Assembly: GCA_964486995.1 (NCBI GenBank)
Contig: CAZAOV010000001.1
Coordinates: forward strand, 15,697-79,696
Direction: 5' to 3'
Source: an uncultured Gammaproteobacteria bacterium
GTDB lineage: Bacteria; Patescibacteriota; Patescibacteriia; SG8-24
Length of the DNA: 64,000 bases
The notes beneath the pieces were generated by a model. The model was given only the letters and a program-made list of their open reading frames with translations. It had not been told where the DNA came from and searched no databases. The position numbers and the translations under genes are program-made. Shown in pieces: positions 1 to 20,651 of the stretch. Numbering within the stretch: position 1 is the first letter of the stretch; the number at the start of each line of letters is the position of its first letter.

Positions 1-332
1 CCACCCACAATATCGTGTCCGCAGCGCTTCGCAATATCAACAAGCAACTCTACCCTAGTCTTCTTGGAAAAAATAAAATCATCATCCAATTGCACAAAAT
101 ACGGCGTGTCGATCTTTTGCATCAACGCCTGCCTACCATAACCCTCACCGGAGTCGTACGGCAGCTTAATCAAATCATGCTTCACTCTCGGTGTCTTTGT
201 GATGTGACGAGAATCATCAGCAACAATAATTCTTATATCTGGATAAAAACTCCGCACAGACAGCAACAACCTCTCCAAGCATCTTGGGCGCATAAAAGCT
301 TTTACAATAAACGTAAACTCTTGATTGCTCAT
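1..332 (-). CDS. Glycosyltransferase, partial. N-terminal ~110 aa only; the gene runs off the window start. GT-A fold with DDS...DDD (DxD).
   Basis: Reverse-strand translation from the ATG at 332 (MSNQEFTFIVKAFMRPRCLERLLLSVRSFYPDIRIIVADDS...VQLDDDFIF) is open to base 1. Its ATG overlaps the TGA of the upstream GT2 gene (ATGA coupling). Not in the ORF track because it is truncated by the window edge. Confidence 0.55.
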   Translation of the reverse strand, partial: MSNQEFTFIVKAFMRPRCLERLLLSVRSFYPDIRIIVADDSRHITKTPRVKHDLIKLPYDSGEGYGRQALMQKIDTPYFVQLDDDFIFSKKTRVELLVDIAKRCGHDIVG

Positions 333-1288
333 ATTTTTTTTTCTAACCTTTTCCTCGCTAGGTTTATGTCTCCTAGTAAGCGATGCAAGCCAGACAATCC
401 CGTAAGCGCAACAGCGTATCCGATATAGCTTTTCCAATTTTTTGGATTCGCAGTTATTGATTCTGCAAACTCCCTTCGCGCAGCACGACTATCATCAAAT
501 TTTTTCTGCATTATTGATCCCCATCTTCTACGTAATTCGCTTCTTTTGACTGCGTCGTGACGATAAATATCGCGATGCTTGTCAAATATGTAATATACAG
601 CCTGACGCACATTATCTTTAGGAGTGGTCAACGTCATATTATCACCGTGTATATAGCGTCTCAAAAGCGGTTCGGACACATTTGCAAAATCGTAATTCTT
701 GAGCAGGCGCGGCCATAAATCACAATCTTCCTGGTGTCGCAACTTTTCATCGTATTTACCTGCCTCTAGCATGGCCTTCCTAGGAATTAACACGCTATCC
801 GCACTTGCAATACGCTCTAAAGCTAGCGCAGCAAAAAAAGGATCATCATATTGCGGGGTTACCTTTAGCGTTTGCTCGCCGGACGATTCATCGATATCAA
901 CGGAATCGCTAGCAACTATCCCCACATTACCGCTGGGGTCGTTTCTAAATACCGCAATTTGCTTTTCAAGTTTTTCCGGCAACCATTCATCGTCTGCGTC
1001 GAGTGGTGCTATATATTCACCTCGCGCTTCATCAATACCCGCGTTTCGCGCCCCGGCCAAACCAACGTTTCCTGATAGGCTGACTACCTTTACTCTGGGT
1101 TCTTGGAGCGCTATTTTCGCTGCGATGCTTTGAGTGTCGTCGGTCGACGCATCATCAATAATAATTATCTCTATGGCCTTATATGTCTGATCGACAGCAC
1201 TTTTAACAGCACGATTCAGAGTTCGTGCTGCGTTATACGCCGGTATAACAACCGTTACCGTATTGCTGCTCTGCTTGTCGTTCTCCAT
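329..1288 (-). CDS. Family 2 glycosyltransferase (GT2)
   Basis: VVIPAYNAARTLNRAVKSAVDQTYKAIEIIIIDDASTDDT: GT-A motif at the N-terminus and a DAD motif. Confidence 0.85.
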   Translation of the reverse strand: MENDKQSSNTVTVVIPAYNAARTLNRAVKSAVDQTYKAIEIIIIDDASTDDTQSIAAKIALQEPRVKVVSLSGNVGLAGARNAGIDEARGEYIAPLDADDEWLPEKLEKQIAVFRNDPSGNVGIVASDSVDIDESSGEQTLKVTPQYDDPFFAALALERIASADSVLIPRKAMLEAGKYDEKLRHQEDCDLWPRLLKNYDFANVSEPLLRRYIHGDNMTLTTPKDNVRQAVYYIFDKHRDIYRHDAVKRSELRRRWGSIMQKKFDDSRAARREFAESITANPKNWKSYIGYAVALTGLSGLHRLLGDINLARKRLEKKI

Positions 1289-1297
1289 TTCGATAAG

Positions 1298-2299
1298 CTA
1301 GTCAGTCCTTTTAGGCAGAGCCTCGCCACCATATAAACCATCGAGGCCGAATGAAGCTATAATTTCACGCGCTCTTCTTATTTGCTCGTGGGATAGCTCG
1401 CTTTGCCAATTATATATTGGCGACAACCCCCTTGCCACCGTACCACTAGATCCTGTCACTCTGCTGGGGTTACGTACAATTTTATTGATAGCACCACTCT
1501 CAAAAGTGAATCTTTTTTCTGACCAAAAAAAGGAATGTAATTTTATCAATTCATCCAACGGATTTAGAAAAAAATCCTCATAATAAATCCGATAAACATC
1601 GTCAAATGAAGACAGCCGTTTTAGTGGAACGTGATTTGTTACTGACCAATACATAATCTCTCGCAGAAATGAATCCTTTTTTGCTGCTGCAAGATGGTGG
1701 CGATGGTCGGACAGCACGTCTTCGACAAGGTGCGGCTGAGATAATGCTGCAAGCTGCTCCTCGGCGCTAAACCAGTCTTTCTTTTTCAGCTTTGATATTG
1801 CGACTGAAAAAGGATTGCGAATCAGAAAAATTAACTTTATATTTGGGTAGCGCTGCTTAATCAAGTGTGCGTAAAAGTGTGAAGTGACATCCTTAACAAG
1901 CACTCCTTCATGCGTATTCGTAAATTCACGAATCAACTCGCCACCATTTCCCTGATCAATTCTTCTGGTCACCGGCAATCCGGAAAAGATCCGCCTCCCC
2001 ATATTCTCCAGATATTCATTGTCTAGACCGTCCCTGACATAGGGATGCCTGGCATGTAGCTTGTCTCCAACAAGAAAATTAAACGGCTCAAATAGCTCTC
2101 TATAATTATTCTGCCAATTTATTAAAGAAGCGATCCATGTGGTGCCACTTCTAGCAGAGCCAACTAGCCATATCTTTTCCTTATAGTTGCCAAATAAGTA
2201 ATTGCACGTGAAAGCTGGTCGCTTAATCAAATAATAAAAACCCTTAATCGCAGCGGCCCTCGTTTTATTTTTGAGATAGGCGTATGTCATGGATTTCAA
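1298..2299 (-). CDS. PAPS-dependent sulfotransferase
   Basis: 5'-PSB-like motif GSARSGTTW and 3'-PB-like motif LIRNPFSVAISKLKKK. Paralog of 22607..23590. Confidence 0.75.
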   Translation of the reverse strand: MKSMTYAYLKNKTRAAAIKGFYYLIKRPAFTCNYLFGNYKEKIWLVGSARSGTTWIASLINWQNNYRELFEPFNFLVGDKLHARHPYVRDGLDNEYLENMGRRIFSGLPVTRRIDQGNGGELIREFTNTHEGVLVKDVTSHFYAHLIKQRYPNIKLIFLIRNPFSVAISKLKKKDWFSAEEQLAALSQPHLVEDVLSDHRHHLAAAKKDSFLREIMYWSVTNHVPLKRLSSFDDVYRIYYEDFFLNPLDELIKLHSFFWSEKRFTFESGAINKIVRNPSRVTGSSGTVARGLSPIYNWQSELSHEQIRRAREIIASFGLDGLYGGEALPKRTD

Positions 2300-2610
2300 T
2301 TAAAAACCGTCCACCGACGGCTTGGCGGTCATTTTTATCCAGCCGACGGATACCGGAGTCGATTGATCACCATCTGTTTCCCTAAGCCATTGCTGCGGTG
2401 CGATCACTATTTTATCTTTGTTGTGATTCAACCAAGCCCCCCACCAAGAAAAACTGCTTTTGGCGATTATGCCGTGCTTGCAACACGACATTAGTATCAA
2501 CTCCTCATAATCCTTAAGCTTACCGTCAGAAACGTACGTAATCGAATATTCATTGCTTAAATTTATTTTACACCCACTCGATATCGACCGAAAAAATGGA
2601 GAGCATATCT
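2300..2610 (-). pseudogene. Remnant of a GT11 alpha-1,2-fucosyltransferase paralog, C-terminal part only
   Basis: ORF 2300..2500 (MILMSCCKHGIIAKSSFSWWGAWLNHNKDKIVIAPQQW) matches the C-terminus of the intact GT11 at 4266..5150. DNA homology continues upstream to about 2600 (ctcctcataatccttaagcttaccgtcagaaacgta vs 4440..4480) and then breaks at the IS30 fragment. Confidence 0.6.
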
Positions 2611-2670: not shown

Positions 2671-3123
2671 TTACGCTCTTGGTGCAGACGGGAGACAAGT
2701 TTTTTTGAGACTTCCCCGAGGCAGGACATAGACATATTGATAGACGACTTCGTGTGAGATGTGCATAGACATAACTTGAGGATGCGCTATTCCCATATGC
2801 CTGACGATCTCGCAGGGCGACCAGCGCTTGCGTAGGCCGGAGAGAACATGTGTGCATAAACGTTCTTCTTGAACAAGTCGACGTTTGCCATAACGACGAG
2901 AAGAAGCGCGACGTTCCGATGCTCTTCCGGCAGAGAATGCCCGATAGCCTGTTACGCCTACATGCCGACTTACTTCACGAGAGATTGTGCTTTTACTTCT
3001 ACCGAGACGCAGAGCAATGCTCGCCCGCGTTTCACCACGAGCCAGCCCCATGCTTATTTCATCTCTTTCACTTTCTGAAAGACGTTTATGCGCTGTTTGT
3101 TGCATACGAGGGAATAGTATCAC
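2671..3123 (-). mobile_element. IS30-family transposase, N-terminal HTH fragment only (DDE catalytic domain missing)
   Basis: LSESERDEISMGLARGETRASIALRLGRSKSTISREVSRH...WSPCEIVRHMGIAHPQVMSMHISHEVVYQYVY matches the IS30 N-terminal HTH region. The ORF stops after 150 aa, before any DDE domain. Confidence 0.6.
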
Positions 3124-3286: not shown

Positions 3287-4243
3287 CTATTTTTTACCCG
3301 CAATCATCTTAACTATAGCATTCAATTTTCTAATTGACTGATACCGCATGGCGTTCCGCTTAAAGTGTTGATATGCTTTTCTTCTCCATTGAACACTTAG
3401 CCTTGCGCGATTTAGATGGGTGGGACAGTTTGCTACTATAAGTTTATTGTATCTCCAGAGCATATATATATACAACAATCCAAAACAAGAATCGGTTTTT
3501 TCATGCACATAAACCAAGTGGCGAGTTGTGCGCGCATCTAGGTCGGATAGCACATTATTCAAATGTTCAATAAACACCTTTTTAGCATTGGCTTTTTGTG
3601 CGTTTCTGTGCTGCTGAGAAATACCACCAGGCGACAGCCTCCACTTAACATGAACTTCATCGAGCAACTCCATGCCAAACCGCAAAGAAAGTTTATTCCA
3701 CAATCCATAATCCTCAACGTATCTATGCGATTCATCATACCCACCTAAATTCATTACGACATCGCGCCTAAACATTACCGATGAATGCGTTAAAACATTA
3801 TTAAATATGAGCCAATAAAAAATTGATTCGCGAGTGGTCGCCAGCGAATGCGAAATACCCAGCGATTGACCCTTATCATCGATCACCTCAACTCGGCACC
3901 CGATTAACGCGATATCAGGATGCTTATCTAGATAACTAACCTGCTGCACGAGACGCTCCGGCAAACTAATATCGTCCGCATCCATTCGCGCAACATATTC
4001 CCCCACTGCCTCCTTCAAACCTTTGTTCAGGGACTTAGTGAGGCCGAGATTGGTTTCGTTCTTCAGTACCCGAATCCGCGGATCTGGGTACGAAGAAATA
4101 ATTTCCGGCGTCGAGTCGGTCGAGGCGTCGTCAATTATCATAAGCTCAAAATCGCGGAAGGTCTGGTTGAGAATGCTCTCCATCGCCGCCCGCAGATACT
4201 TCTCCCCATTGTAGACGGCCATCAGGACCGTTACTTTCGGCAT
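3287..4243 (-). CDS. Family 2 glycosyltransferase (GT2)
   Basis: VTVLMAVYNGEKYLRAAMESILNQTFRDFELMIIDDASTDSTPEII...RMDADD. Confidence 0.85.
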   Translation of the reverse strand: MPKVTVLMAVYNGEKYLRAAMESILNQTFRDFELMIIDDASTDSTPEIISSYPDPRIRVLKNETNLGLTKSLNKGLKEAVGEYVARMDADDISLPERLVQQVSYLDKHPDIALIGCRVEVIDDKGQSLGISHSLATTRESIFYWLIFNNVLTHSSVMFRRDVVMNLGGYDESHRYVEDYGLWNKLSLRFGMELLDEVHVKWRLSPGGISQQHRNAQKANAKKVFIEHLNNVLSDLDARTTRHLVYVHEKTDSCFGLLYIYMLWRYNKLIVANCPTHLNRARLSVQWRRKAYQHFKRNAMRYQSIRKLNAIVKMIAGKK

Positions 4244-4265: not shown

Positions 4266-5150
4266 TTAAAGCTGATACCATTCCTTTGGTATTAAATTAC
4301 CGATATCTTTTTCAACTCTATTAAACCACTTCTTCGGCGCAATGACGATCTTATCTGAATTCCTGTTCAACCACGCCCCCCACCAGGAAAAACTGCTGTT
4401 GGCGATGATGTTGTGTTTGCAGTAGGACATCAGCATCAGCTCCTCATAGTCCTTGAGCTTGCCGTCCGAGACATAAGTCACAGGGTGATCAATCTTCAAA
4501 TTCTCTTTGACCCACTCGATGTCGTCCGAAAAAATAAATAAGTGCGGATTTTCTACTTTGCTGGTTACAAATTTCATTGCTGCTTCGTAGTAAGAAAGGG
4601 AGCAAGTGCCGTGATATTCGTTCGTTCTTTTATCGCTGACGTAATCGCCGCGCCGCACGTGCAAAGATATCGCATTGCAACTTATTATTTCTTGAGTGAT
4701 TGCGCGCCCTTCAATGCTATATTCATCTTTCAATGTGAATTCTTCCCGAATTATTTCTTCGGTGTCCTTAAAATATTTTTCACTCTGCCAATAGCCGCTC
4801 AAATATATTCCACGCTCACCAATTGCCGGAGGCATACGATAACCACTTGTGCCTTCACTGACAACACTATCGTCAAACAATCCAAGCCTTCGAAGCAGAA
4901 AACCCTGTAATCGCTTACCGAATCTTGTTCGTCCCTTCCTTTGCAAACGATTAATTTCTGCCTTGGTGGCCATCTCAATTGAAATATTAAAAACCCCCAG
5001 CCCAAAATGGCGTTTAGTATTATTTTTTGAATCATCTAAGCCAGACAAATCGAGTTTCAATCGCTGACCACTAATCTCCGCCAAAAAACGTCCATATGCA
5101 TACTGAAACATTTGGTTACCTAATCCTCCGATTATTCTGGTTACTATCAT
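4266..5150 (-). CDS. GT11 alpha-1,2-fucosyltransferase
   Basis: N-terminal IIGGLGNQMFQYAYGRFLA, then HVRRGDY, then C-terminal NIIANSSFSWWGAWLN: hallmark motifs of bacterial alpha-1,2-fucosyltransferases. Confidence 0.8.
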   Translation of the reverse strand: MIVTRIIGGLGNQMFQYAYGRFLAEISGQRLKLDLSGLDDSKNNTKRHFGLGVFNISIEMATKAEINRLQRKGRTRFGKRLQGFLLRRLGLFDDSVVSEGTSGYRMPPAIGERGIYLSGYWQSEKYFKDTEEIIREEFTLKDEYSIEGRAITQEIISCNAISLHVRRGDYVSDKRTNEYHGTCSLSYYEAAMKFVTSKVENPHLFIFSDDIEWVKENLKIDHPVTYVSDGKLKDYEELMLMSYCKHNIIANSSFSWWGAWLNRNSDKIVIAPKKWFNRVEKDIGNLIPKEWYQL

Positions 5151-5176: not shown

Positions 5177-5908
5177 TTAAGTCTTGATAGCGCGAATTTG
5201 ATAACCAAAATTTAGCAACTCACTAGATGCGTCTCCTTTCTTTGAAAATCGGGCTAATAACCGTATCACCAACAACAATCCAATTTCTTCAAAAAAATTT
5301 GGCTTGCTACCACCATAATTAAATCCAACGCTCTTAATTCTTCTTACTTCTTGAGCCAGATATTCAAAATAATTTCCGTTGGGCGTAATTTCTTCAACCT
5401 TAAATCCGTTATCAGCGAGAATTTTTTCATACCAATATCTACTATACCCGTTTGCAAAGTAATATGGGGCAAAATGTGTTAGGGAACAGAAGGGTGCGGT
5501 AATAATTAACGTCCCGCCAGGTCGTAAAATTCGAGAAAATTCTTTTACCGCTTTTGCTGGTTCGGGTAAATGCTCAAACACCTCTATGCACATTATCACA
5601 TCGAACGAGCCGCCAGTTACCGGTATATCGCAGATATCTGAAATGATATCAAGCTTCGAATTGTCCCAGGTGTCAGTCTGCAAACCAACAGCGTTACCAC
5701 TGCCATCATACTTACCGAAATCCTGACTTGTATATGCTAAATGAGAACAGAACTTCTTGTATTGTAATTCTCCCGCCCCAGCATCTAAAATCCTATTCCC
5801 CGTGGATATGCGCTTTAATGACCGTTCCAACCATTCCTCCCGAGTAATCACATTTTTTGTCCCAACGTCACCGGACAAACGTTTGATAACTTTTTTTACC
5901 AAATTCAT
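5177..5908 (-). CDS. Class I SAM-dependent methyltransferase
   Basis: Motif I ILDAGAGEL, then post-I DVIMCIEVFEHLPEP. Confidence 0.7.
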   Translation of the reverse strand: MNLVKKVIKRLSGDVGTKNVITREEWLERSLKRISTGNRILDAGAGELQYKKFCSHLAYTSQDFGKYDGSGNAVGLQTDTWDNSKLDIISDICDIPVTGGSFDVIMCIEVFEHLPEPAKAVKEFSRILRPGGTLIITAPFCSLTHFAPYYFANGYSRYWYEKILADNGFKVEEITPNGNYFEYLAQEVRRIKSVGFNYGGSKPNFFEEIGLLLVIRLLARFSKKGDASSELLNFGYQIRAIKT

Positions 5909-6726
5909 ATAGACGACTTTCTAAAATAAAAACATCCACAGCCATAATGCTGTTTATTGGCATCCGCTTCAGAGGCATTAAAAACCATACCTACTTTCCC
6001 AGCATTATCGGGTATCAAATCAAATTGAACCAACTTAAAACCTGAAAAATACTCTAGAATTTGTTCAAACGAATAAATTCTATGAGCGTTAAATTGAATT
6101 CTTGGCTGACCAGAAACGGGAACTGCAATAAGCAGGGTGCCAGCTTTAGCCGTAACCCTCTTCAATTCTGCGATGGCTTTTAAATCACCGTCGGGATCTA
6201 ATTCATCGCCATATCTTCCCAATCCCACATGTTCCAAGGTGTGCATGCACGACAGTGACGCAATGCTGTCATCTTCGAATGGCAACTTCAATAAATCGGT
6301 CCTCAAACATTCCAAATTAGATAAATTCAACTTCACCGGACGATAGTCGTAAAACTTAACAGGAATGAACGCGGACAACACGGAACAAAAATACAGGGTG
6401 GACGATATATCAACGTGTTCCGCTGGTCTGTTCACCGAAAGAATCCGTGTCGCCCAAGCCGGATGATAGATGTAATGGGCATCAAACCCGGTTAGCGACG
6501 TATTATCTTTAATACAGGGATATAAATCAGCATCATGTAGCTCAAAGCGCTCATTATGTTTCGATAAGTTCCTAAATTTTTTCAGCTCATGCCTAAACAA
6601 AAAATGCTTATACAGCACCTTATTTATGGCTCTATATTTTCGATAGGCGCCCTTAAGTAGTTTGCGAACCGGCTTTGGTAATCTACCGATAACAGTGCTC
6701 ATCTTCTGGGTGTTGATTATGGTCAT
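5905..6726 (-). CDS. Hypothetical protein, possibly methyltransferase-like
   Basis: A 273-aa ORF overlapping the neighbouring gene by 4 nt. The motif LSCMHTLEHVGLGRYGDELDPDGD resembles the motif II/III region of Methyltransf_11-type enzymes, but no clear Gly-rich motif I is present. Confidence 0.35.
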   Translation of the reverse strand: MTIINTQKMSTVIGRLPKPVRKLLKGAYRKYRAINKVLYKHFLFRHELKKFRNLSKHNERFELHDADLYPCIKDNTSLTGFDAHYIYHPAWATRILSVNRPAEHVDISSTLYFCSVLSAFIPVKFYDYRPVKLNLSNLECLRTDLLKLPFEDDSIASLSCMHTLEHVGLGRYGDELDPDGDLKAIAELKRVTAKAGTLLIAVPVSGQPRIQFNAHRIYSFEQILEYFSGFKLVQFDLIPDNAGKVGMVFNASEADANKQHYGCGCFYFRKSSI

Positions 6727-9938: not shown

Positions 9939-10649
9939 CTATTTAATAAGATCAGCAAAAATATTCCCGTCCTCCGTCCGACTATTTGGACTTGGGCGAT
10001 ACTCACACGGTATTGCAGACGAGATGCTACTATTTCGGCTATTAAAAAGAATTTTGCTATATCCAACCGCTCGTGCCATCTCTTCGAGTATTGCTGGACT
10101 CAAGACGTTAAGATGGCCATGCCTATCCCACTCCTCAACAAACACACCATTAAAACCCTTATCAAATTCCGAATGACTTTTCATTGAAACTAAAATGTTA
10201 GGTGTATTGACCCGATGTACGGCCCCCGGTTTCATAATTCGCAGCATCTCGGATAAAAAAAGGAATTGACTGCGTTGAGTTAGGTGTTCAATAAAATCCT
10301 CATGAAAAATAACATCTACACAATTGTCAGGAAATGGCAACGGCTCCTTCGTAAGATTAATCGAATAAAAATCATTTTTCTCCGTTCCCCTAATCTGCGG
10401 CGGATAAAATTCATCGGTATAATATTGTAAATAATTCTCAAACGGACAATACTTCAAATCAATATTTATCCACCCCTTTAGGACACGGGGTCCACATCCG
10501 ATATGTAGTTTGATATTTCTTTCATTTGCGAAAATCTGATTTCGTAACTTGTTGATTCCTGTCCAGTGTCGTTTTGCCGCCATTTTTTGATCTGCATTTC
10601 TAACATCATGATAGATTCTCCTAATTTTTTTTAATGCATAAATTACCAT
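9939..10649 (-). CDS. Class I SAM-dependent methyltransferase
   Basis: KLHIGCGPRVLKGWINIDL (motif I), then RIMKPGAVHRVNTPN. Confidence 0.6.
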   Translation of the reverse strand: MVIYALKKIRRIYHDVRNADQKMAAKRHWTGINKLRNQIFANERNIKLHIGCGPRVLKGWINIDLKYCPFENYLQYYTDEFYPPQIRGTEKNDFYSINLTKEPLPFPDNCVDVIFHEDFIEHLTQRSQFLFLSEMLRIMKPGAVHRVNTPNILVSMKSHSEFDKGFNGVFVEEWDRHGHLNVLSPAILEEMARAVGYSKILFNSRNSSISSAIPCEYRPSPNSRTEDGNIFADLIK

Positions 10650-13529: not shown

Positions 13530-14448
13530 GCGTTTGCGGTTCGGGCACTGATTTTACTTGTTTTTCCTCATGTTGGGGCTTGGTTTGTTCCGAGACCTCT
13601 CCCCTCACCCGCTTATTAGAAGCGACGACTTCGGCCCACAGCTTCGGATTGTAACCCTTGGCGCGCACGGCGGTGACTATCGCCGCCGTATCTTTCGGGA
13701 GGCATTTTCCGCTGAAGCCGCGACCGTCCGGATAAATGCTGGTCATCGAACGGCCGATGCGTCCATCCAATAGCCACAGTTCCTTTATCTCGTTATAGTC
13801 GGCGCCGAATGCCTGACAGACGTTATACATCTCATCGCAAAAAATCTTTTTAGTGGCTAAATACATATTTACAAAATACTTGGTCATCTCGGCATGCAGC
13901 GCTGTAGTTTGCATGAAACGTGCGCCCCAACCAGCAATTCTCTGAAAAATTTGAAGCCATTCCGTTGTCACTTCCCGATTGCCGCCAAAAATATGGAAGC
14001 TGTGCAGTTTCATGTCGGTCGGATGAGGCATGTCCTGCCAGTACGGTATCTGATACTTGCCCTCGCCAATGTATTCGGGACTAAAACAAATTCGTCTGCC
14101 GGTTTTTTCTGACAAGCTATCAATGGTGCCGGGCGCAACCGTCGATTTTACCAGGTAGCTCTTGTGGTTAGTTTCAGTCAGCACGTCCTCGGCGATTGAG
14201 GTGTCGCAGCGCCAGCCGTCCGAACCGGTCGGGGTAGGTACGCAGACCACGGCGTGCTCTATGCCGTCCGCGGCCTTATATTCCTTGCTCCAAAGTTCAG
14301 GGTAGTCTGGGTCATCGCTGTTTTTCAGCGCGTCAAAATCCACGAACGGATCAATGACCATCACGTCGTAATGACTTTTCAAAAAACGATATAACGCACG
14401 GCCAACGTAGCCGTATCCGTAGAGGGCGATTTTTTTTCGGTTGGACAT
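13516..14448 (-). CDS. Nucleotide-sugar dehydrogenase (UDP-glucose 6-dehydrogenase family), unusually short; apparently lacks the C-terminal UDP-binding domain
   Basis: Rossmann motif IALYGYGYVGRA; VVCVPTPTGSDGWRCDTS; KSTVAPGT; SPEYIGEG; catalytic-Cys motif FSGKCLPKD. The ORF ends about 55 aa after the catalytic Cys. Confidence 0.6.
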   Translation of the reverse strand: MSNRKKIALYGYGYVGRALYRFLKSHYDVMVIDPFVDFDALKNSDDPDYPELWSKEYKAADGIEHAVVCVPTPTGSDGWRCDTSIAEDVLTETNHKSYLVKSTVAPGTIDSLSEKTGRRICFSPEYIGEGKYQIPYWQDMPHPTDMKLHSFHIFGGNREVTTEWLQIFQRIAGWGARFMQTTALHAEMTKYFVNMYLATKKIFCDEMYNVCQAFGADYNEIKELWLLDGRIGRSMTSIYPDGRGFSGKCLPKDTAAIVTAVRAKGYNPKLWAEVVASNKRVRGEVSEQTKPQHEEKQVKSVPEPQTHGSH

Positions 14449-14471: not shown

Positions 14472-15416
14472 TTATGCTGATGTTATTTTATACTCCGCCT
14501 TAAACCATGTATAGACGCGCTGCAAACCTTCTTCCAATTCTATGGCATGATGCCAGCCAAGAGCGTGCAGCTTGGTCAGGTCGAGTAGTTTTTGCGGCAT
14601 GCCGTCGGGCTTGGTGGTATCAGATACTAATGCCCCTTTATATCCAACTACCCGCTTAATCAGCTCAGCCAGTTCTCTAATAGATAAATCCACTCCCGTC
14701 CCCACATTCACGAACTGCTGATCGTCATAGTTGTTCATCAGGAACAGGGCGGCGCTCGCCAGGTCATCGACATGCAGAAATTCACGTCGGGCGGCGCCGG
14801 TTCCCCAGATTTCAACTTGCGGGGCGTTGCTGACTTTAGCTTCGTGGAACTTTCTGATTAGCGCCGGCAGGACATGGGAATTTTCCAGATCGAAATTGTC
14901 GTTCGATCCGTAGAGGTTGGTCGGCATGCAGGAGATGAATTTCTGGCCGTACTGCTCGTGGATTTTTTCGCAGAGCTTCATGCCGGCGATTTTGGCGATG
15001 GCATAACCCTCGTTTGTGGGTTCTGGTTTTCCGCTTAACAGATACTCTTCCTTCATGGGCTGAGAACATTCACGAGGGTAAATGCAACTGCTACCTAAAA
15101 ACAATAATTTTTTCACGTCATGCAGATGAGCCTGCCAAATAACGTTATTTTGAATCTGTAAATTTTCGTACAGAAAATCGGCTTGATGCGTCTTATTATC
15201 CATGATTCCACCAACTCTGGCCGCAGCCACAAAAACATACTCTGGACGTTCCTGCTCATAAAATTTACTTGCAGCCGCCTGATCCGACAAATCCAGCTCG
15301 TGTCGAGTGCGCGTGACGATATTGGTAAATCCTTCTTTCTCCAACAACCGCAAAATTGCTGAACCGACCATTCCACGATGCCCAGCAACATATATTTTAG
15401 AGCTCTTGTCCCACAT
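14472..15416 (-). CDS. fcl: GDP-L-fucose synthase (GDP-4-keto-6-deoxymannose 3,5-epimerase/4-reductase)
   Basis: [19 protein letters not shown]...SSCIYP...YAIAK. Confidence 0.85.
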
Positions 15417-16449
15417 ATTGAGCGTAATGTACCTTTTTATCTTCCTCGATCATTCCTTTCACCAAATCACTGAACTTGATTCGCGGCTCCCAGCCAAGCT
15501 TCTCTTTGGCCTTCGTAGCATCGCCAATCAGCAAATCGATTTCAGCTGGACGGAAATAACGCGGGTCTATCTTGATAATCGCCTGGCCAGTCTTTCGATC
15601 TATCCCCTGCTCATGCAGGCCCTCACCTTTCCAGGTCAAATCAAATTCCATTTGATGGGCCGCTTCCTCAACGAAATCTCTAACGCTATGCGTCTCCCCC
15701 GTTGCCAAAACAAAATCATCCGGTTCGCTATGCTGGAGTATCTTCCACATTCCCTCAACATAGTCGCGAGCATGACCCCAGTCACGTTTTGCTTCCAGGT
15801 TACCCAAGAACAACGTGTCGTCCAAACCAGCTTTGATACGATTTAACCCTCTGGTTATTTTTCTGGTGACAAATGTTTCGCCCCGCCGTTCAGATTCGTG
15901 ATTAAACAAAATGCCGTTTGAAGCGAACAGATCGTAGCTTTCTCGATAGTTCTTGGTAATCCAATACGCATACACCTTAGCGCAACCATACGGCGAACGC
16001 GGATAGAACGGCGTGTTTTCTGTCTGCGGAATTTCTTGAACTTTTCCGAACATTTCACTGGAAGACGCCTGATAATAACGAACTTTTGGACAGATATCAC
16101 GTACTGCTTCCAATATACGCGTCGTGGACAGACCCGTGACGTCACCCGTGTATTCTGGAATATCAAAACTTACCCGAACGTGTGACTGCGCTCCAAGATG
16201 ATAAATTTCATCTGGAATAATCTTCTTGAGCAGTCGGGCGATGTTGCTGCTATCAGCCAAATCGCCATAATGCAAAATCAACCGACGGCCGACATCATGA
16301 GGGTCAGAATAGATATGGTCGATACGCTCCGTATTAAACGACGAGGCCCGGCGAATAATGCCATGCACCTCATAGCCCTTTTCAAGCAGGAGTTCCGCCA
16401 AATATGAACCATCCTGACCGGTTATTCCTGTTATTAACGCTTTTTTCAT
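15397..16449 (-). CDS. gmd: GDP-mannose 4,6-dehydratase
   Basis: [47 protein letters not shown]: a near-canonical Gmd N-terminus, 350 aa. Confidence 0.9.
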
Positions 16450-16474: not shown

Positions 16475-16756
16475 TTACCACTGCTTAGTTTTATCCTTCG
16501 TAGTTTTCTTCATTTTTTTGTAGGCTTTCGTTGCCGCCTGGTCTATTTCCGGTGATAGCATTCTCAAAATCTCATGGCCGAAGATGCGATGCTGATTCCC
16601 GACTTTGTTGGCGCGGAGCAAACCCTTCTTTATGAGACGCTTAAAAGTGCTCGAGCTAATCTTGAGCATCTGTTCCGTTTCCTTGGGCGTATAGATTTCG
16701 TTCGGATTTATCTCCATGCCGATCGCTAAAATGTGATTCACTCTACAAACACTCAT
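16475..16756 (-). CDS. Excisionase/MerR-family HTH DNA-binding protein
   Basis: [43 protein letters not shown] has an HTH_17-like pattern. Confidence 0.5.
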
Positions 16757-16892
16757 ATAATATCAATGGGTGTCATTAGGTGTCAAAAGGTAGCTGTTGA
16801 TATCATAAAAATGCGTGCGCATGATTCTAAGTTTGTCATCAACAAACGCACACTTTTTTTCACGAACGGCACAACTGTTAGTCAATATGACT

Positions 16893-17159
16893 ATCTGATC
16901 GGCTCCCCGACCTTAATCATTTTCTTGGCCCATTCAATGGTCTCCAGAATCCCTTACACCGGCAACACACCTGGACGGAAACCAATTTCTTTCTCGGCTT
17001 TAGACAGATCAAGCGACATATTTCGCGCATCACCCGGCTTTGCCGGACTGTGCTCAGGATACAAGCTGGCGCAAACAGCTTCATGGCCATCCATCTGGAA
17101 AACTGATACTAAATCCTGCCCCAGATTTCCTTTATCACCAAGAATTAATGTTCTCGCAT
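16893..17159 (-). pseudogene. Internally deleted remnant of an NAD(P)-dependent sugar epimerase/reductase gene
   Basis: The reverse strand encodes ...LILGDKGNLGQDLVSVFQMDGHEAVCASLYPEHSPAKPGDARNMSLDLSKAEKEIGFRPGVLPV*, then after the stop TIEWAKKMIKVGEPIR*. That is an N-terminal Rossmann start joined directly to a C-terminal tail that is DNA-homologous to the 3' end of 19701..20651. No in-frame start codon. Confidence 0.5.
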
Positions 17160-17220: not shown

Positions 17221-18849
17221 TCAATTTAAACCTCTTTCCATTAGATATGCAATGACCTGTTCGGCGCATTCTTCCGGAGAATATTCTACGGTGTTCAGAA
17301 TCACCTCGGCGTTTTCGGAACGTTCGAACGGGTCATCTACGCCGGTGAAGTTCTTAAGCTGACCCAGTTCGGCTTTACGGTACAGCCCTTTCATGTCGCG
17401 CTGTTTGCAGACTTCTATAGGAGTATCTACCAGCACCTCGATGTAAGTTCCGGTTTTGCTTATTAGTTCTCGGTTCTTATCGCGGGTGGCCGCATACGGC
17501 GCAATCGTCGCGCAGATAGCGATGCCGCCGTGTTTGGTGATTTCGTTGGCGACGAAGCCGATACGTAAAATATTTGTATCGCGGTCCTCGCGGGAGAAGC
17601 CCAGGCCTTGCGATAGGTTGTTGCGAATTACGTCTCCGTCCAACACGGTAATCTCCCTATCCTGCACCTCACGCAGCTTGTCGTGCAGGATTTTTGCTAT
17701 CGTTGATTTACCGGAGCAAGACAGGCCAGTCATAAAAATCGTGAAACCGCGACGATTATCGCGCTGTACTGCTTTGCGCAATCCGGAAACTATTTCTGGA
17801 AAGGACAGCCACTCCGGCACATCTTCGCCCGCACGAATCATGCGACGCAGTTCTGTTCCGGAAATTTTTTCCGGTTGGTGGTGTTCCTCCAGCTCATGCG
17901 TGTAGAAGTATTTTTTCTCGGACGGCACGTAAGCAATTTCCTTTGGTGAGACAATCTCGATGCCAATTTCGTCCGCGTGTTCCCGCGCCAACTCCTGTGC
18001 ATCGTACGATCCGTAGTAATTCCCGCCCGGATCAGCGTGCCCGCGGCCGACGATGAAATGCGTACAGCCGTAGTTCTTTCTGATCTGCGCGTGCCACACC
18101 GCCTCGCGCGGACCGGCCATTCGCATCGCGAGCGGCAACAGGCTCAGCTTGGCGAAGTCGCTCATATAATTCTCTGCTACCTTGCGATAACAGCGCACAC
18201 GTGTGACATGATCGATATCCCCTGGCTTTGTCTCCCCTATGGTCGGATGGATTAGCACCTTGGCGTTGTGTTCCTCGGCCCCGCGACGCATCAGTTCGTA
18301 ATGAGCGCGATGAATCGGGTTGCGGGTCTGGAATCCGATTACCTTTTCCCAGCCGTTTTCGGCGAACCATTGTTTTAGCTCGTCTGGTCTATGGCGCAAG
18401 TCGATGAAACTTCCGTTACGGCCTTTTAGCTTCACGTCAGTGACTGGACCACCCAGATATACTCGACCGACATCGTCAAACAATTTCCGTACGCCGGCGT
18501 GATTTTTGTCTGTAGTCTGATAAATTTTTTCAGCCTCACGCAACTTGTCTGGTATGTATGTTGAAGTCACGTTCATGACTGCCGCCGGATTACCGTACTT
18601 GTCGCATAGTACGATTTCTTCGCCGACTTCGATATTGGCATTATTCACATCTAGGGCTATCGGCATTGACCACAATGCACCATCGGCTAATCGCATAATA
18701 TCTAAAACCGACTCGTAGTCCGCCTGATTCATAAATCCAGTGAGCGGTGCGAACGAGCCATCTAGTAACAGCTCCAAATCACAAAGCTGGCGGTCCGTTA
18801 GGTTGACCCGTCTCAACGTGGCAATTTTGTCTCTGATATTTTGCATCAT
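17221..18849 (-). CDS. sat-cysC: Bifunctional sulfate adenylyltransferase (ATP sulfurylase) / adenylylsulfate kinase, i.e. PAPS synthase
   Basis: N-terminal ATP-sulfurylase motifs QTRNPIHRAHYEL and HxxG. C-terminal APS kinase P-loop GFTIFMTGLSCSGKSTIAKIL. 542 aa. Confidence 0.9.
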   Translation of the reverse strand: MMQNIRDKIATLRRVNLTDRQLCDLELLLDGSFAPLTGFMNQADYESVLDIMRLADGALWSMPIALDVNNANIEVGEEIVLCDKYGNPAAVMNVTSTYIPDKLREAEKIYQTTDKNHAGVRKLFDDVGRVYLGGPVTDVKLKGRNGSFIDLRHRPDELKQWFAENGWEKVIGFQTRNPIHRAHYELMRRGAEEHNAKVLIHPTIGETKPGDIDHVTRVRCYRKVAENYMSDFAKLSLLPLAMRMAGPREAVWHAQIRKNYGCTHFIVGRGHADPGGNYYGSYDAQELAREHADEIGIEIVSPKEIAYVPSEKKYFYTHELEEHHQPEKISGTELRRMIRAGEDVPEWLSFPEIVSGLRKAVQRDNRRGFTIFMTGLSCSGKSTIAKILHDKLREVQDREITVLDGDVIRNNLSQGLGFSREDRDTNILRIGFVANEITKHGGIAICATIAPYAATRDKNRELISKTGTYIEVLVDTPIEVCKQRDMKGLYRKAELGQLKNFTGVDDPFERSENAEVILNTVEYSPEECAEQVIAYLMERGLN

Positions 18850-18852
18850 AGA

Positions 18853-19698
18853 TTAGCTTATTTTACTAGCCGTAACGACATATCCAACTCCAAAAGTTCT
18901 CAGCGGCACCAATCGCTCACCCACCGGTTCGGCCGCGGCTAAAACTTTATCGACTGCTGGTATTTTGATATTCGGAAACAGCCGCATACGCTTTAACGAT
19001 TCGATATCGAAACCATTAGCTTTCAGCGGTTCGGTGACCTGCTGTGAAGGCACATACATTTCGTCTGTCAGATAAAATCCGTTTCCGATTGGGCGAAGCT
19101 TGCCGGTATTCCAACCGTTCTTCTTGAGCCTCCATTTAATGATTGGATTGCCGCCGTTTGGCTCACTGATAATTAACTTACCATTCGTTTTGAGCAGCTT
19201 GCGCGTCTGCTTAAAGAAAAGCTCGTGTGGAACTATATGATGCAATGCTTCTTGCACATAAATGACATCGAATAGCTCATCTGGTGCGTATTCTGTAATG
19301 CTGTCCTCAACGAAGGTAATATTGTCCGCGCCCCAACGCTCGGCTCTCTCATGAGAAAGTTTTATGTAAACGGGGTTGATATCCAGGCCAATGACTTGAT
19401 GCGCGCCGGAAGCTGCAAGCAGTAGGCTCTGAGTACCCATTCCACAACCGACGTCCAAACATCTTTTGCCTGGCGCCGCGGACACGGCAGACTGAGTGCA
19501 CATACGATAGTAACGTCGACTCAGTTCTGTCGGACCTCGATAATAGCGGCTAAATTTTTTGAATATTTTATGAAATTCGGGACTGTACCATTCGGACAAC
19601 TCGCGATGCTCGTCTACGATATTCCCAAAAATCGCTGCGACCCTAGCGTCATGCGTTGGCAATTTTCTGAGCTGTGGAATATCGATGATTTCCGACAT
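18853..19698 (-). CDS. Class I SAM-dependent methyltransferase
   Basis: CLDVGCGMGTQSLLLAASGAHQVIGLDINP (motif I plus post-I). Confidence 0.7.
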   Translation of the reverse strand: MSEIIDIPQLRKLPTHDARVAAIFGNIVDEHRELSEWYSPEFHKIFKKFSRYYRGPTELSRRYYRMCTQSAVSAAPGKRCLDVGCGMGTQSLLLAASGAHQVIGLDINPVYIKLSHERAERWGADNITFVEDSITEYAPDELFDVIYVQEALHHIVPHELFFKQTRKLLKTNGKLIISEPNGGNPIIKWRLKKNGWNTGKLRPIGNGFYLTDEMYVPSQQVTEPLKANGFDIESLKRMRLFPNIKIPAVDKVLAAAEPVGERLVPLRTFGVGYVVTASKIS

Positions 19699-19700
19699 AT

Positions 19701-20651
19701 TTATCTAACCGGTTCCCCAGCCTCAATCATTTTCTTGGCCCAGGTGATTGTTTCGGGGATTCCTTCGGCTAGCAGAACCCCGGGACGGAAACCGATTTCC
19801 TGCTCGGCCTTAGATGGGTCTAATGAAACATTGCGCTCGTCACCTGGTTTGGCTGGGCCGTATTCTGGTTCCAGCTCTGTACCGACCGCTGACGCCACCG
19901 CATCATATAAATCTTTGACCGACGTTTCGGCGCCGGTGCCGACGTTGAATGCGCCGTCTGGATGTTTTTCTACCCCTTCGACGATCATGCGGGCGATGTC
20001 TTTTACGAAAACGAAATCGCGAGTCTGTTCGCCGGTGCCGTTGACTCGTGGCGCTTCGCCCTGAATCAATTTCTGCGTAAAAATAGAAATCACGCCGGAC
20101 TCACCTTTGATAGTCTGTCGCGGACCGTACACGTTACCAAACCGCAATGCGGTCGCGGCCAGCCCCCGCCGTCCAGCGAGCACCCGCAGATACAATTCAA
20201 ACGCATACTTCGCGATTCCGTACGGCGAGCCCGGCTCGCAGGGCATGTCTTCAGTGATGGGATTGGTCTTGATGGCTGGGCTGTAAACCGCGGCGGACGA
20301 GGCGAACACTATCCCCTTCGCACCTCCGGCAGTAGTTGCGTCAAGTACGTTAAGGCTACCGCCGATATTAATCTCCGAATCGATGCCGGGCTCCTCGTAT
20401 GAACTACGCAAGTCCACATGGGCGGCTAGATGCACTACTGCGACCGGCTTGATTTCTTCGAATAGCGAAATTAGTTCCTTGGAGCGGATATCCATCTCGT
20501 GCAAGGTCGCGTCCGGATGTACATACTGGCGAAAGCCGGTAGTGAAGTCATCAACGATATGGACGTTGTAGCCGCGTTCGACTAGTAAATCAGTTACGTG
20601 CGAACCGATGAAGCCGGCGCCGCCGGTTACGATTGCGTTTTTGGTGGACAT
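19701..20651 (-). CDS. NAD-dependent nucleotide-sugar epimerase/dehydratase (UDP-hexose 4-epimerase-like SDR)
   Basis: [34 protein letters not shown]; YGIAKYAFE (YxxxK). Confidence 0.85.
   Translation of the reverse strand: MSTKNAIVTGGAGFIGSHVTDLLVERGYNVHIVDDFTTGFRQYVHPDATLHEMDIRSKELISLFEEIKPVAVVHLAAHVDLRSSYEEPGIDSEINIGGSLNVLDATTAGGAKGIVFASSAAVYSPAIKTNPITEDMPCEPGSPYGIAKYAFELYLRVLAGRRGLAATALRFGNVYGPRQTIKGESGVISIFTQKLIQGEAPRVNGTGEQTRDFVFVKDIARMIVEGVEKHPDGAFNVGTGAETSVKDLYDAVASAVGTELEPEYGPAKPGDERNVSLDPSKAEQEIGFRPGVLLAEGIPETITWAKKMIEAGEPVR

Follow-up and report, generated by a model that had tools for sequence, protein, structure and literature searches.

A gene island at the start of the window, the whole 64-kb stretch of DNA that was analysed, is best read from its genes as directing the synthesis of a sulfated and methylated glycan that contains fucose, with its own PAPS supply and with export by a Wzm/Wzt (ABC) system. 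The island takes up at least the first 23.6 kb of the window, reaching to around position 23,590, and this size is a lower bound as the window start falls within the island. Its genes are closely spaced, with overlapping stops and starts, and lie on one strand (minus, unless stated otherwise). Profile searches recovered every gene of a preliminary description of this DNA, in the same place and in the same family. That description had placed the island between positions 1 and 20,651; the genes in this range stand, whereas the right end moves outward, since a glycosyltransferase (21607-22590) and a second sulfotransferase (22607-23590) lie beyond it. We consider it likely that the island is a strain-variable surface-glycan locus of a Patescibacteria (CPR) bacterium, in which a sulfated, O-methylated heteroglycan is assembled in the cytoplasm and exported via Wzm/Wzt.

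Glycosyltransferases and nucleotide sugars

Four complete GT2 glycosyltransferases are matched by Pfam PF00535: GT2_a (329..1288; E 5e-40; GC3 0.41), GT2_b (3287..4243; E 3e-36), GT2_c (7990..8883; E 2e-34) and GT2_d (21607..22590; E 2e-36; GC3 0.60), the last being the enzyme outside the earlier range. A partial GT2-type gene (3..332) crosses the window start, and its N-terminal 110 aa match Glycos_transf_2 with 37.8 bits. The island also encodes an enzyme of the GT11 alpha-1,2-fucosyltransferase family (4266..5150; Glyco_transf_11, E 2e-34) and a single-domain, exostosin-like (GT47-related) GT-B glycosyltransferase (9018..9908; Exostosin_GT47, 56.6 bits against a cut-off of 33.4). Apart from GT2_d, all of these had been predicted, and the Pfam matches bear the predictions out.

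The exostosin-like protein is 296 aa long and belongs to a family of 1,205 cluster representatives, most of which are 280-310 aa. When compared with the PDB, the profile of this family matches EXT1 in its GT47 domain (7e-21), EXT2 (9e-14) and EXTL3 (1e-12), as well as the PBCV-1 A075L xylosyltransferase (E 2e-6). The preliminary description had likened the island to a eukaryotic glycosaminoglycan, heparan or fucoidan toolkit, but the comparison is not supported. A GT64 partner domain is missing, as are an NDST-type or HS O-sulfotransferase and a C5-epimerase; the exostosin-like protein has a single domain, like its family of about 1,200 representatives is mostly short, and the UGDH-like protein lacks its UDP-binding domain.

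Nucleotide-sugar enzymes are found in the same run of genes. GDP-mannose 4,6-dehydratase (gmd, 15397..16449) matches TIGR01472 with 566 bits against a cut-off of 415, and GDP-L-fucose synthase (fcl, 14472..15416) matches NF047922 with 478 bits (E 1e-143); no mannose-1-phosphate guanylyltransferase was found within the 64-kb window. A GalE-like NDP-sugar 4-epimerase of the SDR type (19701..20651) matches Epimerase (E 8e-54) and the UDP-glucose 4-epimerase 4zrm in the PDB (E 4e-71). The UDP-glucuronate decarboxylase UXS (6938..7885, plus strand), which forms UDP-xylose, aligns over its full length with human UXS1 (4gll/2b69; phmmer, E 3e-124, 418 bits), the second-best PDB match reaching 141 bits. 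It is the sole plus-strand gene of the island.

These four enzymes agree with the sugar supply first proposed, whereas the line from UGDH to UDP-xylose has a gap. The UGDH-like dehydrogenase (13516..14448) has just two of the usual domains, the NAD-binding one and the central one (UDPG_MGDP_dh, E 1e-21 for the latter). It aligns with residues 2-291 of the 402 of 1dli and keeps the GYGYVG (GxGxxG) motif and the catalytic-Cys motif GFSGKCLPKD, after which it ends in a hydrophilic tail; profile search, the 1dli alignment and reading of the sequence agree that the C-terminal UDP-binding domain is wholly absent. Other organisms carry full-length, 445-aa versions in the same gene block. The route from UDP-GlcA to UDP-Xyl is therefore incomplete within the island, and incorporation of xylose would depend on UDP-GlcA from elsewhere.

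Methylation and export

Five of the five or six SAM methyltransferases originally counted are upheld by profile search. They are MT_a (5177..5908; Methyltransf_11/23, E about 1e-14), a DUF268 methyltransferase-like protein (5905..6726; PF03269, E 9e-15, with Methyltransf_11 at threshold), MT_b (9939..10649; Methyltransf_11, 28.5 bits against a cut-off of 21.2), an FkbM-family methyltransferase (10643..11467; Methyltransf_21, E 3e-18) and MT_c (18853..19698; Methyltransf_31/25/11, E 1e-17 to 1e-20).

The predicted exporter, with its carbohydrate-binding Wzt C-terminus, is likewise recognizable. Wzm (12717..13529) is an ABC-2 permease (ABC2_membrane, E 8e-19), and Wzt (11470..12714) joins an ABC ATPase (ABC_tran, E 7e-23) to a C-terminal carbohydrate-binding domain. 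The latter scores 29.0 bits with Wzt_C, marginally under the Pfam cut-off of 30.4, but residues 42-395 of the protein align with residues 26-374 of the 404 of Aquifex aeolicus Wzt (8dku; E 4e-71), the C-terminal domain included. Neither an initiating phosphoglycosyltransferase nor a ligase or LCP enzyme was found within the 64-kb window.

Sulfation

The PAPS synthase, a bifunctional ATP sulfurylase/APS kinase (Sat/CysC, 17221..18849), contains PUA_2, ATP-sulfurylase and APS_kinase domains and matches NF004040 with 750 bits against a cut-off of 669. Two PAPS-type sulfotransferases accompany it: ST1 (1298..2299) scores 43.2 bits with Sulfotransfer_1 and 35.4 with Sulfotransfer_3, and ST2 (22607..23590) scores 48 and 39.9, where the Pfam cut-offs are 22 and 27 bits, respectively. 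Sat/CysC and ST1 had been named before, and ST2 is new. The two sulfotransferases are 39% identical, with every invariant motif residue present in ST2, and both retain intact PAPS-binding motifs, the 5'-PSB (RSGTTW) and the 3'-PB (RNP..A.S), which are invariant in the family alignment. An AF2 model of ST1 (pLDDT 83.8) returns only PAPS-dependent sulfotransferases as its top Foldseek matches.

Such enzymes could also act away from the glycan and be merely co-located with its genes, sulfating a tyrosine of a secreted or surface protein in the manner of RaxST or TPST, a lipid or a small molecule. Tyrosylprotein sulfotransferases do come closest in fold to the ST1 model, and the RSGTT of the 5'-PSB resembles that of TPST, but the structural likeness is at the level of the fold only (TM ~0.5, 10-16% identity). 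In the profile check that had been suggested, the Sulfotransfer_1/3 profiles match above their cut-offs; no carbohydrate-specific sulfotransferase profile and no NCBIfam model matches either ST1 or ST2. Of 80 genomic loci with this family, tblastn showed GT2 neighbours at no more than about 25. Within the island, however, ST1 lies between GT2_a and a GT11 remnant and ST2 abuts GT2_d, in a co-directional run of glycosyltransferases, and the sulfotransferase of CPR relatives likewise has glycosyltransferases, sugar-nucleotide enzymes and flippases or exporters on its flanks. Action off the glycan appears unlikely, and sulfation of the glycan itself is the preferred reading.

Host lineage and the role of PAPS

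The host belongs to the Patescibacteria/CPR, as its GlyRS is 86-88% identical to that of Patescibacteria MAGs, 74% to that of Uhrbacteria and 63-66% to those of Magasanik- and Falkowbacteria. The nearest homologue of Sat/CysC (75% identity) is found in a Patescibacteria sister MAG, on a contig that is collinear with the window through cobW, a radical SAM gene, an ORF and Sat/CysC. By this identity and synteny, and by a GC3 (0.58) that matches the housekeeping genes, Sat/CysC is native to the host lineage. Named members among its nearest homologues are almost all CPR, and in six of the eight contexts of these homologues, Woesebacteria and Kaiserbacteria MAGs included, a sulfotransferase (Pfam) lies within 4 kb, together with glycosyltransferases and methyltransferases; a CysQ-like phosphatase is directly upstream in three of the six. 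The comparison of neighbourhoods that had been called for shows this sulfation module recurring in related glycan loci.

These contexts bear on whether PAPS is made for assimilatory sulfate activation or general needs, with the position of Sat/CysC in the island being incidental. Bifunctional Sat/CysC enzymes are known in assimilatory contexts of other bacteria, and distant homologues (43-53% identity) rarely adjoin sulfotransferases (3 of 80 loci). Against this, a profile scan agrees with the earlier remark that neither PAPS reductase (cysH) nor sulfite reductase is present; they and CysQ have no match in the scanned ORFs of the 64-kb window, nor does the window hold a cysteine-synthesis gene, although this covers 64 kb of the genome, and the rest of it may carry cysH or sulfite reductase. 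To our knowledge, CPR genomes generally lack amino-acid biosynthesis. A survey of groundwater CPR bacteria found PAPS synthase among them but no genes of sulfur reduction (PMC12114108). An assimilatory or general role seems highly improbable. The evidence from motifs, fold, window and relatives, where the same PAPS synthase stands beside sulfotransferases and often beside a CysQ-like PAP phosphatase, instead supports the original proposal that PAPS would here be a sulfuryl donor.

Mosaic structure of the island

Three modules of differing GC make up the island, a mosaic that bears pseudogene scars and a probable insertion-sequence scar. Genes at 329-12714 have a GC3 of 0.31-0.49, against 0.57-0.66 in housekeeping genes, while ST2 (GC3 0.63) resembles the host genes. 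A remnant of a second fucosyltransferase (2300..2500), the C-terminal 66 aa of a GT11 gene, matches Pfam GT11 with 36 bits at profile positions 243-282, and DNA at 2383-2597 is 74-81% identical to 4322-4535 in the intact GT11 gene. A helix-turn-helix fragment (2671..3123) matches HTH_38 (E 2e-12) and HTH_23 and no Pfam transposase catalytic domain; HTH_38 is typical of IS30-family transposases, and the fragment is probably the N-terminal remnant of one. At a module junction, a small HTH_17 DNA-binding protein (16475..16756; PF12728, E 6e-9) can be read from its domain as excisionase-like, and close by the 3' end of the GalE-like epimerase gene recurs in degenerate form (16892..17063; 70% identical to 19702-19873), a recombination scar whose likeness is also visible at the peptide level.

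The GT11, HTH and epimerase fragments mean that some decay has occurred. Taken further, the island might be a decaying, non-functional remnant of horizontal acquisition, or a chimera of foreign low-GC DNA and a CPR contig; the low GC3, the HTH_17 gene and the truncated UGDH would fit, as would the distance of ST1 from its nearest homologue (38% identity among 5.8 billion proteins), none of the matches listed being named as CPR. Yet 22 ORFs are intact, with their catalytic or cofactor motifs and an operon-like packing, and the right-hand part, Sat/CysC included, is collinear with the sister MAG. The GC shift is stepwise, passing through an intermediate module, and breaks inside wzt between NBD and CBD, from 0.45 in the 5' (NBD) part to 0.31-0.33 in the 3' (CBD) part, as would be expected from recombination of glycan loci and not from mis-assembly. 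Low GC is, moreover, typical of polysaccharide loci (PMC11641403). Wholesale decay or chimerism therefore strikes us as quite improbable, and we retain the reading of a functional glycan locus.

A proposed pathway and its setting

From these genes we infer the composition of the glycan, the timing of its modification, its cap, its acceptor and the expression of the pathway, as follows. Nucleotide sugars would be made in the cytoplasm, with GDP-fucose coming from Gmd/Fcl, a 4-epimer from the GalE-like enzyme and, given available UDP-glucuronate, UDP-xylose from UXS. At least seven single-domain glycosyltransferases (five GT2, including the partial one, one GT11 and one exostosin-like GT-B) would assemble a heteroglycan, carried on a lipid, on the cytoplasmic side of the membrane. 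While still cytoplasmic, the chain would be O-methylated by the five SAM methyltransferases and sulfated by ST1 and ST2 with PAPS made locally by Sat/CysC, and the finished chain would leave through Wzm/Wzt. The Wzt C-terminal domain probably reads a cap at the non-reducing end, for which a methyl group is the likeliest candidate and a sulfate another possibility. By the general view, CPR bacteria have neither an outer membrane nor LPS; the glycan would therefore not be a classical LPS O-antigen, and lipid A-core is a less likely acceptor for it than the cell wall, an S-layer or pilin protein, or a lipid anchor.

The tight linkage of these functions in a bacterial ABC-dependent locus is less unusual than had been claimed. 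In Vibrio sp. KMM 8419, a cluster with the same combination of PAPS genes, sulfotransferases and an ABC exporter belongs to a chemically proven sulfated capsule (PMC11641403), whereas the present glycan is predicted from its genes. An Acidobacteriota locus has independently brought together Wzm, Wzt, Sat/CysC and three sulfotransferases. The sulfated-glycan, ABC-export and PAPS-donor parts of the earlier interpretation are kept, and its eukaryote-like and unusual aspects are set aside. We found no paper in the literature describing such a locus in Patescibacteria/CPR. The type of locus is already known from other bacteria, and the interest lies in its CPR host: the proposed surface sugar chain would belong to an ultra-small bacterium.

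Gene content of the island

The glycan-gene island runs from the start of the window, which cuts its left end, to about 23,590, and it probably encodes a pathway for a sulfated glycan. The ORF listing places all of its genes on the minus strand save UXS, which lies on the plus strand. The first stretch holds a partial GT2 glycosyltransferase (3-332), a complete GT2 (329-1288), the sulfotransferase ST1 (1298-2299), a further GT2 (3287-4243), a GT11 (4266-5150), two methyltransferase-type genes (5177-5908 and 5905-6726), UXS (6938-7885), another GT2 (7990-8883), an exostosin-like glycosyltransferase (9018-9908), a methyltransferase (9939-10649) and an FkbM-type methyltransferase (10643-11467). 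These are followed by wzt (11470-12714), wzm (12717-13529), a gene for a short UGDH-like protein (13516-14448), fcl (14472-15416) and gmd (15397-16449). The remainder comprises the bifunctional ATP sulfurylase/APS kinase Sat/CysC (17221-18849; NF004040, 750 bits against a cut-off of 669), the fifth methyltransferase, MT_c (18853-19698), a GalE-like epimerase (19701-20651), the GT2 glycosyltransferase GT2_d (21607-22590) and a second sulfotransferase, ST2 (22607-23590). Together with profile searches, the listing upholds nearly every gene named in the preliminary description, which had closed the island at 20,651; GT2_d and ST2 lie beyond that point, and at least 23.6 kb of the genome is given to one decorated glycan with its own PAPS supply. 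Between the epimerase and GT2_d, a gap of 950 bp contains a fully overlapping antisense pair of ORFs of about 160 aa, 20980-21483 (-) and 21004-21477 (+), for which a Pfam scan gave no match. The DNA of the pair at 20980-21483 is 65% conserved in the sister MAG, whose annotated gene lies on the strand that corresponds to the plus strand of the window.

The genes for nucleotide-sugar supply differ in how complete they are. UXS is a true orthologue, matching human UXS1 along the full length (E 3e-124; the next-best PDB family reaches 141 bits). The UGDH-like protein keeps the Rossmann GxGxxG and catalytic-Cys motifs and carries a hydrophilic tail in place of the UDP-binding domain; wzm begins directly after the end of its gene. 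The presence of fucose in the glycan is supported by the GDP-fucose supply together with the intact GT11.

Sulfotransferases and PAPS synthase

The sulfation claim of the preliminary description depended on its sulfotransferase ORFs matching carbohydrate or PAPS sulfotransferase profiles, and they match general Pfam sulfotransferase profiles. Both ST1 and ST2, which are 39% identical to each other, pass the Pfam cut-offs for Sulfotransfer_1 and Sulfotransfer_3, and their PAPS-binding motifs are intact. The 5'-PSB loop (G-x-x-R-S-G-T-T-W; RSGTTW) and the 3'-PB motif (R-N-P...A-x-S; RNP..A.S) are invariant in a 24-sequence family alignment, and the family profile lines both up with those of the cytosolic sulfotransferases. 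A search of PDB sequences with ST1 as a single sequence gave nothing meaningful; matches came only with the family profile and with a search by fold. An AlphaFold model of ST1 built on the family alignment (pLDDT 83.8, pTM 0.85) gave 35 significant Foldseek matches in the PDB, all of the PAPS-sulfotransferase fold, including TPST1/2, SULTs, mycobacterial Stf1 and Stf9, and retinol dehydratase. The best folds are of the TPST and cytosolic SULT types, with NDST1 only 41st, and the modelled fold leaves the acceptor undefined. Inspection of the sequences reveals no evident hydrophobic membrane-spanning segment in either ST1 or ST2, and the N-terminal helix of the ST1 model (residues 2-35) is likewise not hydrophobic.

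The sulfotransferase family is divergent. The closest relative of ST1 among 5.8 billion proteins is 38% identical, and one-genome-per-species scans find 336 relatives spread over many phyla. A scan of the genome collection with the family returned 80 loci, all at no more than 38% identity, of which one (L004, an acidobacterial locus) contains Wzm and two contain Sat/CysC; as a rule, then, members of the family go with neither ABC export nor a PAPS synthase close by. In the island, Sat/CysC has glycan genes on both flanks, and PAPS synthesis is placed inside the cluster.

PAPS as a probable sulfuryl donor

The reading of PAPS as a donor for sulfation, rather than as an intermediate of assimilation, is supported by what surrounds its synthase. 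Pfam scans of ORFs across the 64 kb found no PAPS/APS reductase, sulfite reductase or CysQ, in keeping with the earlier observation that cysH and sulfite reductase are missing, and no Pfam match to CysH or sulfite reductase is linked to Sat/CysC in eight related contexts. A ninth context, the syntenic sister contig L081, is uninformative, as it stops 180 nt past Sat/CysC, and is excluded from the count. The named nearest homologues of Sat/CysC (52-75% identity) come almost entirely from CPR, namely Patescibacteria, Kaiser-, Levy- and Woesebacteria. The neighbourhood comparison proposed at the outset places a Pfam sulfotransferase within 4 kb of Sat/CysC in six of the eight contexts, amid glycosyltransferases, methyltransferases, sugar-nucleotide enzymes and flippases or exporters. 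Three of those six have a gene for a CysQ-like inositol phosphatase immediately upstream; a phosphatase of this kind is the enzyme required to clear the by-product PAP. The other two contexts are a glycan locus with no recognised sulfotransferase and a locus with no glycan genes. Among more distant homologues (43-53% identity; a metagenome scan whose best match is at most 53%), sulfotransferase neighbours are rare. In one of the CPR glycan loci, that of Kaiserbacteria GCA_016194405.1, a TOD1_MUCI70-family protein (7277-8029) is encoded directly downstream of Sat/CysC; apart from this, the family is known from the biosynthesis of pectin and mucilage in plants.

Several metagenome contigs share a recurrent supply block composed of WecB, Sat/CysC, a full-length UGDH, gmd and fcl. 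It occurs in L139, L146, L157 and L160 (for instance at 2889-9648 of L146), with a three-domain UGDH of 445 aa and with housekeeping genes following, and the gmd of these contigs is 61-62% identical to that of the window. The block joins the supply of PAPS, UDP-GlcA and GDP-fucose in one operon, with no glycosyltransferase or sulfotransferase nearby. It echoes the Sat/CysC, gmd, fcl and UGDH-like set of the window, and its full-length UGDH shows that the UGDH-like gene of the window is a shortened form of a normally three-domain enzyme.

An independent combination of Wzm, Wzt, Sat/CysC and three sulfotransferases is found in L004, from an Acidobacteriota (Pyrinomonadaceae) MAG (JBGTSF010000010.1, 754-13070). 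This locus also contains NeuB, NeuC and a NeuA-like gene (a NeuBCA set), a methyltransferase, AsnB and TagF-like genes, and its sulfotransferases belong to three Pfam families, Sulfotransfer_3, the ST1 family and Sulfotransfer_2. Its product is probably a sulfated polymer containing nonulosonic acid. A shared, possibly sulfated, ligand for the carbohydrate-binding domains (CBDs) of the two Wzt proteins was considered and dropped, the domains being 26% identical over 42 residues.

Export, assembly and the acceptor

Wzm matches ABC2_membrane (E 8e-19) and Wzt matches ABC_tran (E 7e-23). The best PDB match of Wzt is the full-length Aquifex aeolicus Wzt (E 4e-71), in an alignment that reaches residue 395 of the 414 of the window protein and so passes through the C-terminal CBD; the Pfam Wzt_C score of 29.0 bits falls 1.4 short of the cut-off of 30.4. 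Wzt accordingly carries a carbohydrate-binding C-terminal domain.

An ABC-transporter-dependent pathway is the most economical reading of these genes. The entire chain would be completed at the cytoplasmic face and exported afterwards, and because it would be finished in the cytoplasm, SAM-dependent methylation and PAPS-dependent sulfation could both act there. In characterised systems, a CBD-bearing Wzt binds a cap at the non-reducing end. Here the cap may be methyl or, less likely, sulfate, which is plausible given the five methyltransferases and two sulfotransferases; none of these five small methyltransferases or two sulfotransferases shows the WbdD architecture of a chain terminator, though capping by them is possible.

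The window ORFs scanned include no initiating phosphoglycosyltransferase and no ligase or transferase to a final acceptor; such genes may sit outside the window. To our knowledge, CPR are generally held to lack an outer membrane and LPS. An LPS O-antigen was considered and rejected as the default reading because the host is a CPR bacterium, and for the same reason the cell wall, an S-layer protein, a pilin or a lipid anchor is the more likely acceptor. Elsewhere in the window, a membrane ORF at 38143-38880 (+) gives a sub-threshold match to Wzy_C, the O-antigen ligase/O-oligosaccharyltransferase family (E 0.009), and a type-IV-pilin-like protein with an N_methyl motif (E 2e-8) is encoded nearby at 39567-40043 (-). 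If the Wzy_C match is real, the two could form a pilin-glycosylation pair that uses the island glycan.

The exostosin-like glycosyltransferase

The exostosin-like protein is a single-domain protein of 296 aa, belonging to a family of some 1,200 cluster representatives that are mostly 280-310 aa in length. It scores 56.6 bits against a cut-off of 33.4 for Pfam Exostosin_GT47, over profile positions 169-279 only. Searched with the family profile, the GT47 domain of EXT1 gives E 7e-21 and the chlorovirus xylosyltransferase A075L (PMC11571054) a weaker E 2e-6. On this evidence the protein is a genuine homologue of the EXT1 GT47 domain, and the eukaryotic exostosins EXT1/EXT2/EXTL3 (GT47+GT64) and A075L (GT114) are its closest known counterparts. 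Relative to these, the alignment is confined to the C-terminal, donor-binding half. Unlike EXT1/EXT2/EXTL3, the protein has neither a GT64 partner nor a type-II membrane anchor. The UXS gene lies two genes away, an arrangement compatible with UDP-Xyl or UDP-GlcA as the donor. UXS and the exostosin-like enzyme, through its link to A075L, together support xylose in the glycan; xylose would still need a source of UDP-GlcA, and the truncated UGDH-like protein may not be one.

The preliminary description took this set of genes for a eukaryote-like GAG toolkit, a view that does not survive closer comparison. Pfam scans of the island found none of the other polymerase-type domains, whether of a GT47+GT64 copolymerase or of a KfiA/KfiC or PmHS equivalent. 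A C5-epimerase is likewise absent from the Pfam scans, and ST1 folds like TPST and SULT enzymes rather than like the GAG-type sulfotransferases (NDST, 2-O-, 3-O- and 6-O-ST). For the supply of UDP-GlcA and UDP-Xyl, UXS is a clear orthologue, and the UGDH is incomplete. There is no evidence that the exostosin-like protein makes a GAG backbone, and a GAG or fucoidan-like product is rejected because the defining tests for a GAG pathway failed.

Mosaic structure and chromosomal site

The island is a mosaic of three GC modules. A host-like module (17.2-23.6 kb), with ST2, GT2, the epimerase and Sat/CysC, has a GC3 of 0.58-0.63, with MT_c in the same stretch at 0.49; the housekeeping genes of the window range from 0.57 to 0.66. 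An intermediate module (12.3-16.4 kb) comprises gmd, fcl, the UGDH-like gene and wzm (GC3 0.48-0.59), and a low-GC module (0.3-12.3 kb) holds the rest of the island genes (GC3 0.31-0.49). By composition, the 5' part of wzt, which encodes the nucleotide-binding domain (NBD), belongs to the intermediate module, and GC falls within the gene, between its NBD and CBD parts. Scars mark the module joints. They include a 66-aa C-terminal remnant of GT11, whose DNA is 74-81% identical to the intact gene, adjoined by a helix-turn-helix (HTH_38) fragment that is read as the remnant of an IS30-type transposase. At the junction at 16.5-17.1 kb, the 3' end of the epimerase gene recurs as a copy with 70% identity, accompanied by an HTH_17 gene.

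The glycyl-tRNA synthetase of the window shares 86-88% identity with its counterparts in MAGs that carry the label Patescibacteria group bacterium, about 74% with that of Candidatus Uhrbacteria and 63-66% with those of Magasanik- and Falkowbacteria. The sister contig L081, from a Patescibacteria MAG (GCA_043804985.1), is collinear with the window over cobW, a radical-SAM gene, a small ORF and Sat/CysC, at 65-73% nucleotide identity. This collinearity places the PAPS synthase at a conserved chromosomal site in the lineage, with differing genes around it, just as a hypervariable surface-glycan locus would be expected to look.

The window has further features. A 45-nt palindromic repeat (TTTATCCACAAAATAGGTGCCTGGCACCTATTTTGTGGATAA...) is present in three copies (25341-25385, 27003-27047 and 27651-27695), two of which form 36-nt inverted arms around an IS200-like Y1 transposase gene, ORF 26999-27616 (-); the arrangement looks like a REP/RAYT-type element and is missing from L081. 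Also missing there is a gene adjoining the IS200-like element, 25429-26580 (+), in which a nucleoside 2-deoxyribosyltransferase-like domain is fused to a NUDIX hydrolase. Two long ORFs, 49251-53528 (-; 1,425 aa) and 46212-48200 (+; 662 aa), have no Pfam match whatever and may encode large lineage-specific surface proteins of the CPR host. Side by side at 31042-31680 (-) and 32301-33065 (-) are SWEET/MtN3-like and PQ-loop membrane proteins, which may be SemiSWEET-type transporters relevant to sugar scavenging by CPR. Finally, 57352-58485 (-) holds a tRNA cluster comprising Thr(GGT), Tyr(GTA), Thr(TGT) and Trp(CCA); after it come NUDIX and Fic-domain genes instead of the usual tuf/secE/nusG surroundings.

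Comparison with known systems

A close parallel is found in Vibrio sp. KMM 8419, which has a sulfated capsule of proven chemistry; the capsule cluster contains three sulfotransferases, a Kps ABC exporter and cysNDC in a second set, and PAPS genes and sulfotransferases within a polysaccharide cluster have been proposed as a hallmark of sulfated polysaccharide synthesis (PMC11641403). The island shares with this cluster its own PAPS genes, several sulfotransferases, glycosyltransferases, sugar-nucleotide genes and ABC export, as well as low, heterogeneous GC and traces of mobile elements. The two differ in that Vibrio has separate cysN, cysD and cysC rather than a fused Sat/CysC, and exports by Kps (group 2/3 capsule), which includes outer-membrane components, rather than by Wzm/Wzt with a carbohydrate-binding tail. 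The island further has five methyltransferases and a supply of fucose and xylose. The Vibrio strain is a diderm gammaproteobacterium whereas the island host is a CPR bacterium, and sulfation chemistry is proven in the former and predicted in the latter.

With E. coli O9a/O8, the Aquifex aeolicus Wzm-Wzt and the Geobacillus S-layer glycan, the island has in common Wzm and a CBD-bearing Wzt, predicted cytoplasmic assembly and single-domain glycosyltransferases. As in those systems, methyltransferases are available for a terminal cap, and a GC break falls between the NBD and CBD of Wzt. Unlike them, the window has no WbdD-type kinase/methyltransferase, WecA, TagO, WaaL, LCP or O-oligosaccharyltransferase, and we know of no description of sulfation in these model systems.

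Dedicated or duplicated PAPS synthesis coupled to sulfotransferases acting on a secreted or surface glycan is also familiar from rhizobia (NodPQ with NodH; LpsS/KpsS) and from cyanobacterial synechan (xss). Export proceeds by the Nod-factor ABC exporter in rhizobia and by Wzx/Wzy for synechan. The export routes of these systems differ from that of the island, and so, probably, do their sulfotransferase families. The linkage of these functions in a bacterial ABC locus, at first described as unusual, is thus of a kind already known from the Vibrio cluster (PMC11641403) and the rhizobial and synechan precedents. What is new is the CPR host, not the kind of locus.

Sulfated glycans as a possible trait of CPR envelopes

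A literature search on sulfotransferases or sulfated glycans in CPR/Patescibacteria found nothing relevant beyond a passing note of a PAPS synthase in groundwater CPR that have no sulfur-reduction genes (PMC12114108). The module of PAPS synthase plus sulfotransferase recurs in glycan loci of Woese-, Kaiser- and other Patescibacteria, and this recurrence in several CPR classes leads to the general hypothesis that CPR envelopes bear sulfated glycans. Sulfated surface glycans may, we tentatively suggest, be a widespread and unrecognised trait of Patescibacteria/CPR, in which the bifunctional PAPS synthase, common in these reduced genomes, feeds sulfotransferases within hypervariable glycan islands, not assimilation, and in which polyanionic, methyl-capped glycans serve attachment to host cells or evasion of phage or host. 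The proposal is put somewhat short of an even chance because the contexts behind it number eight and the taxonomy is that of MAG labels.

CPR genomes are about 1 Mb in size, and those few members that are in culture live on other cells, attached to them. Small genomes and an attached lifestyle make surface chemistry central to CPR biology, and this chemistry has so far been almost unknown. For polysaccharide biotechnology, the island contributes a PAPS synthase that is fused and compact, together with sulfotransferases of a divergent family, no more than 38% identical to anything known; ST1 and ST2 are concrete enzymes with which to test the sulfation of CPR envelopes. If the proposal is true, sulfation would be a general feature of these envelopes, and the counts of sat/cysC as 'sulfur metabolism' in metagenome surveys of CPR would need reinterpretation.
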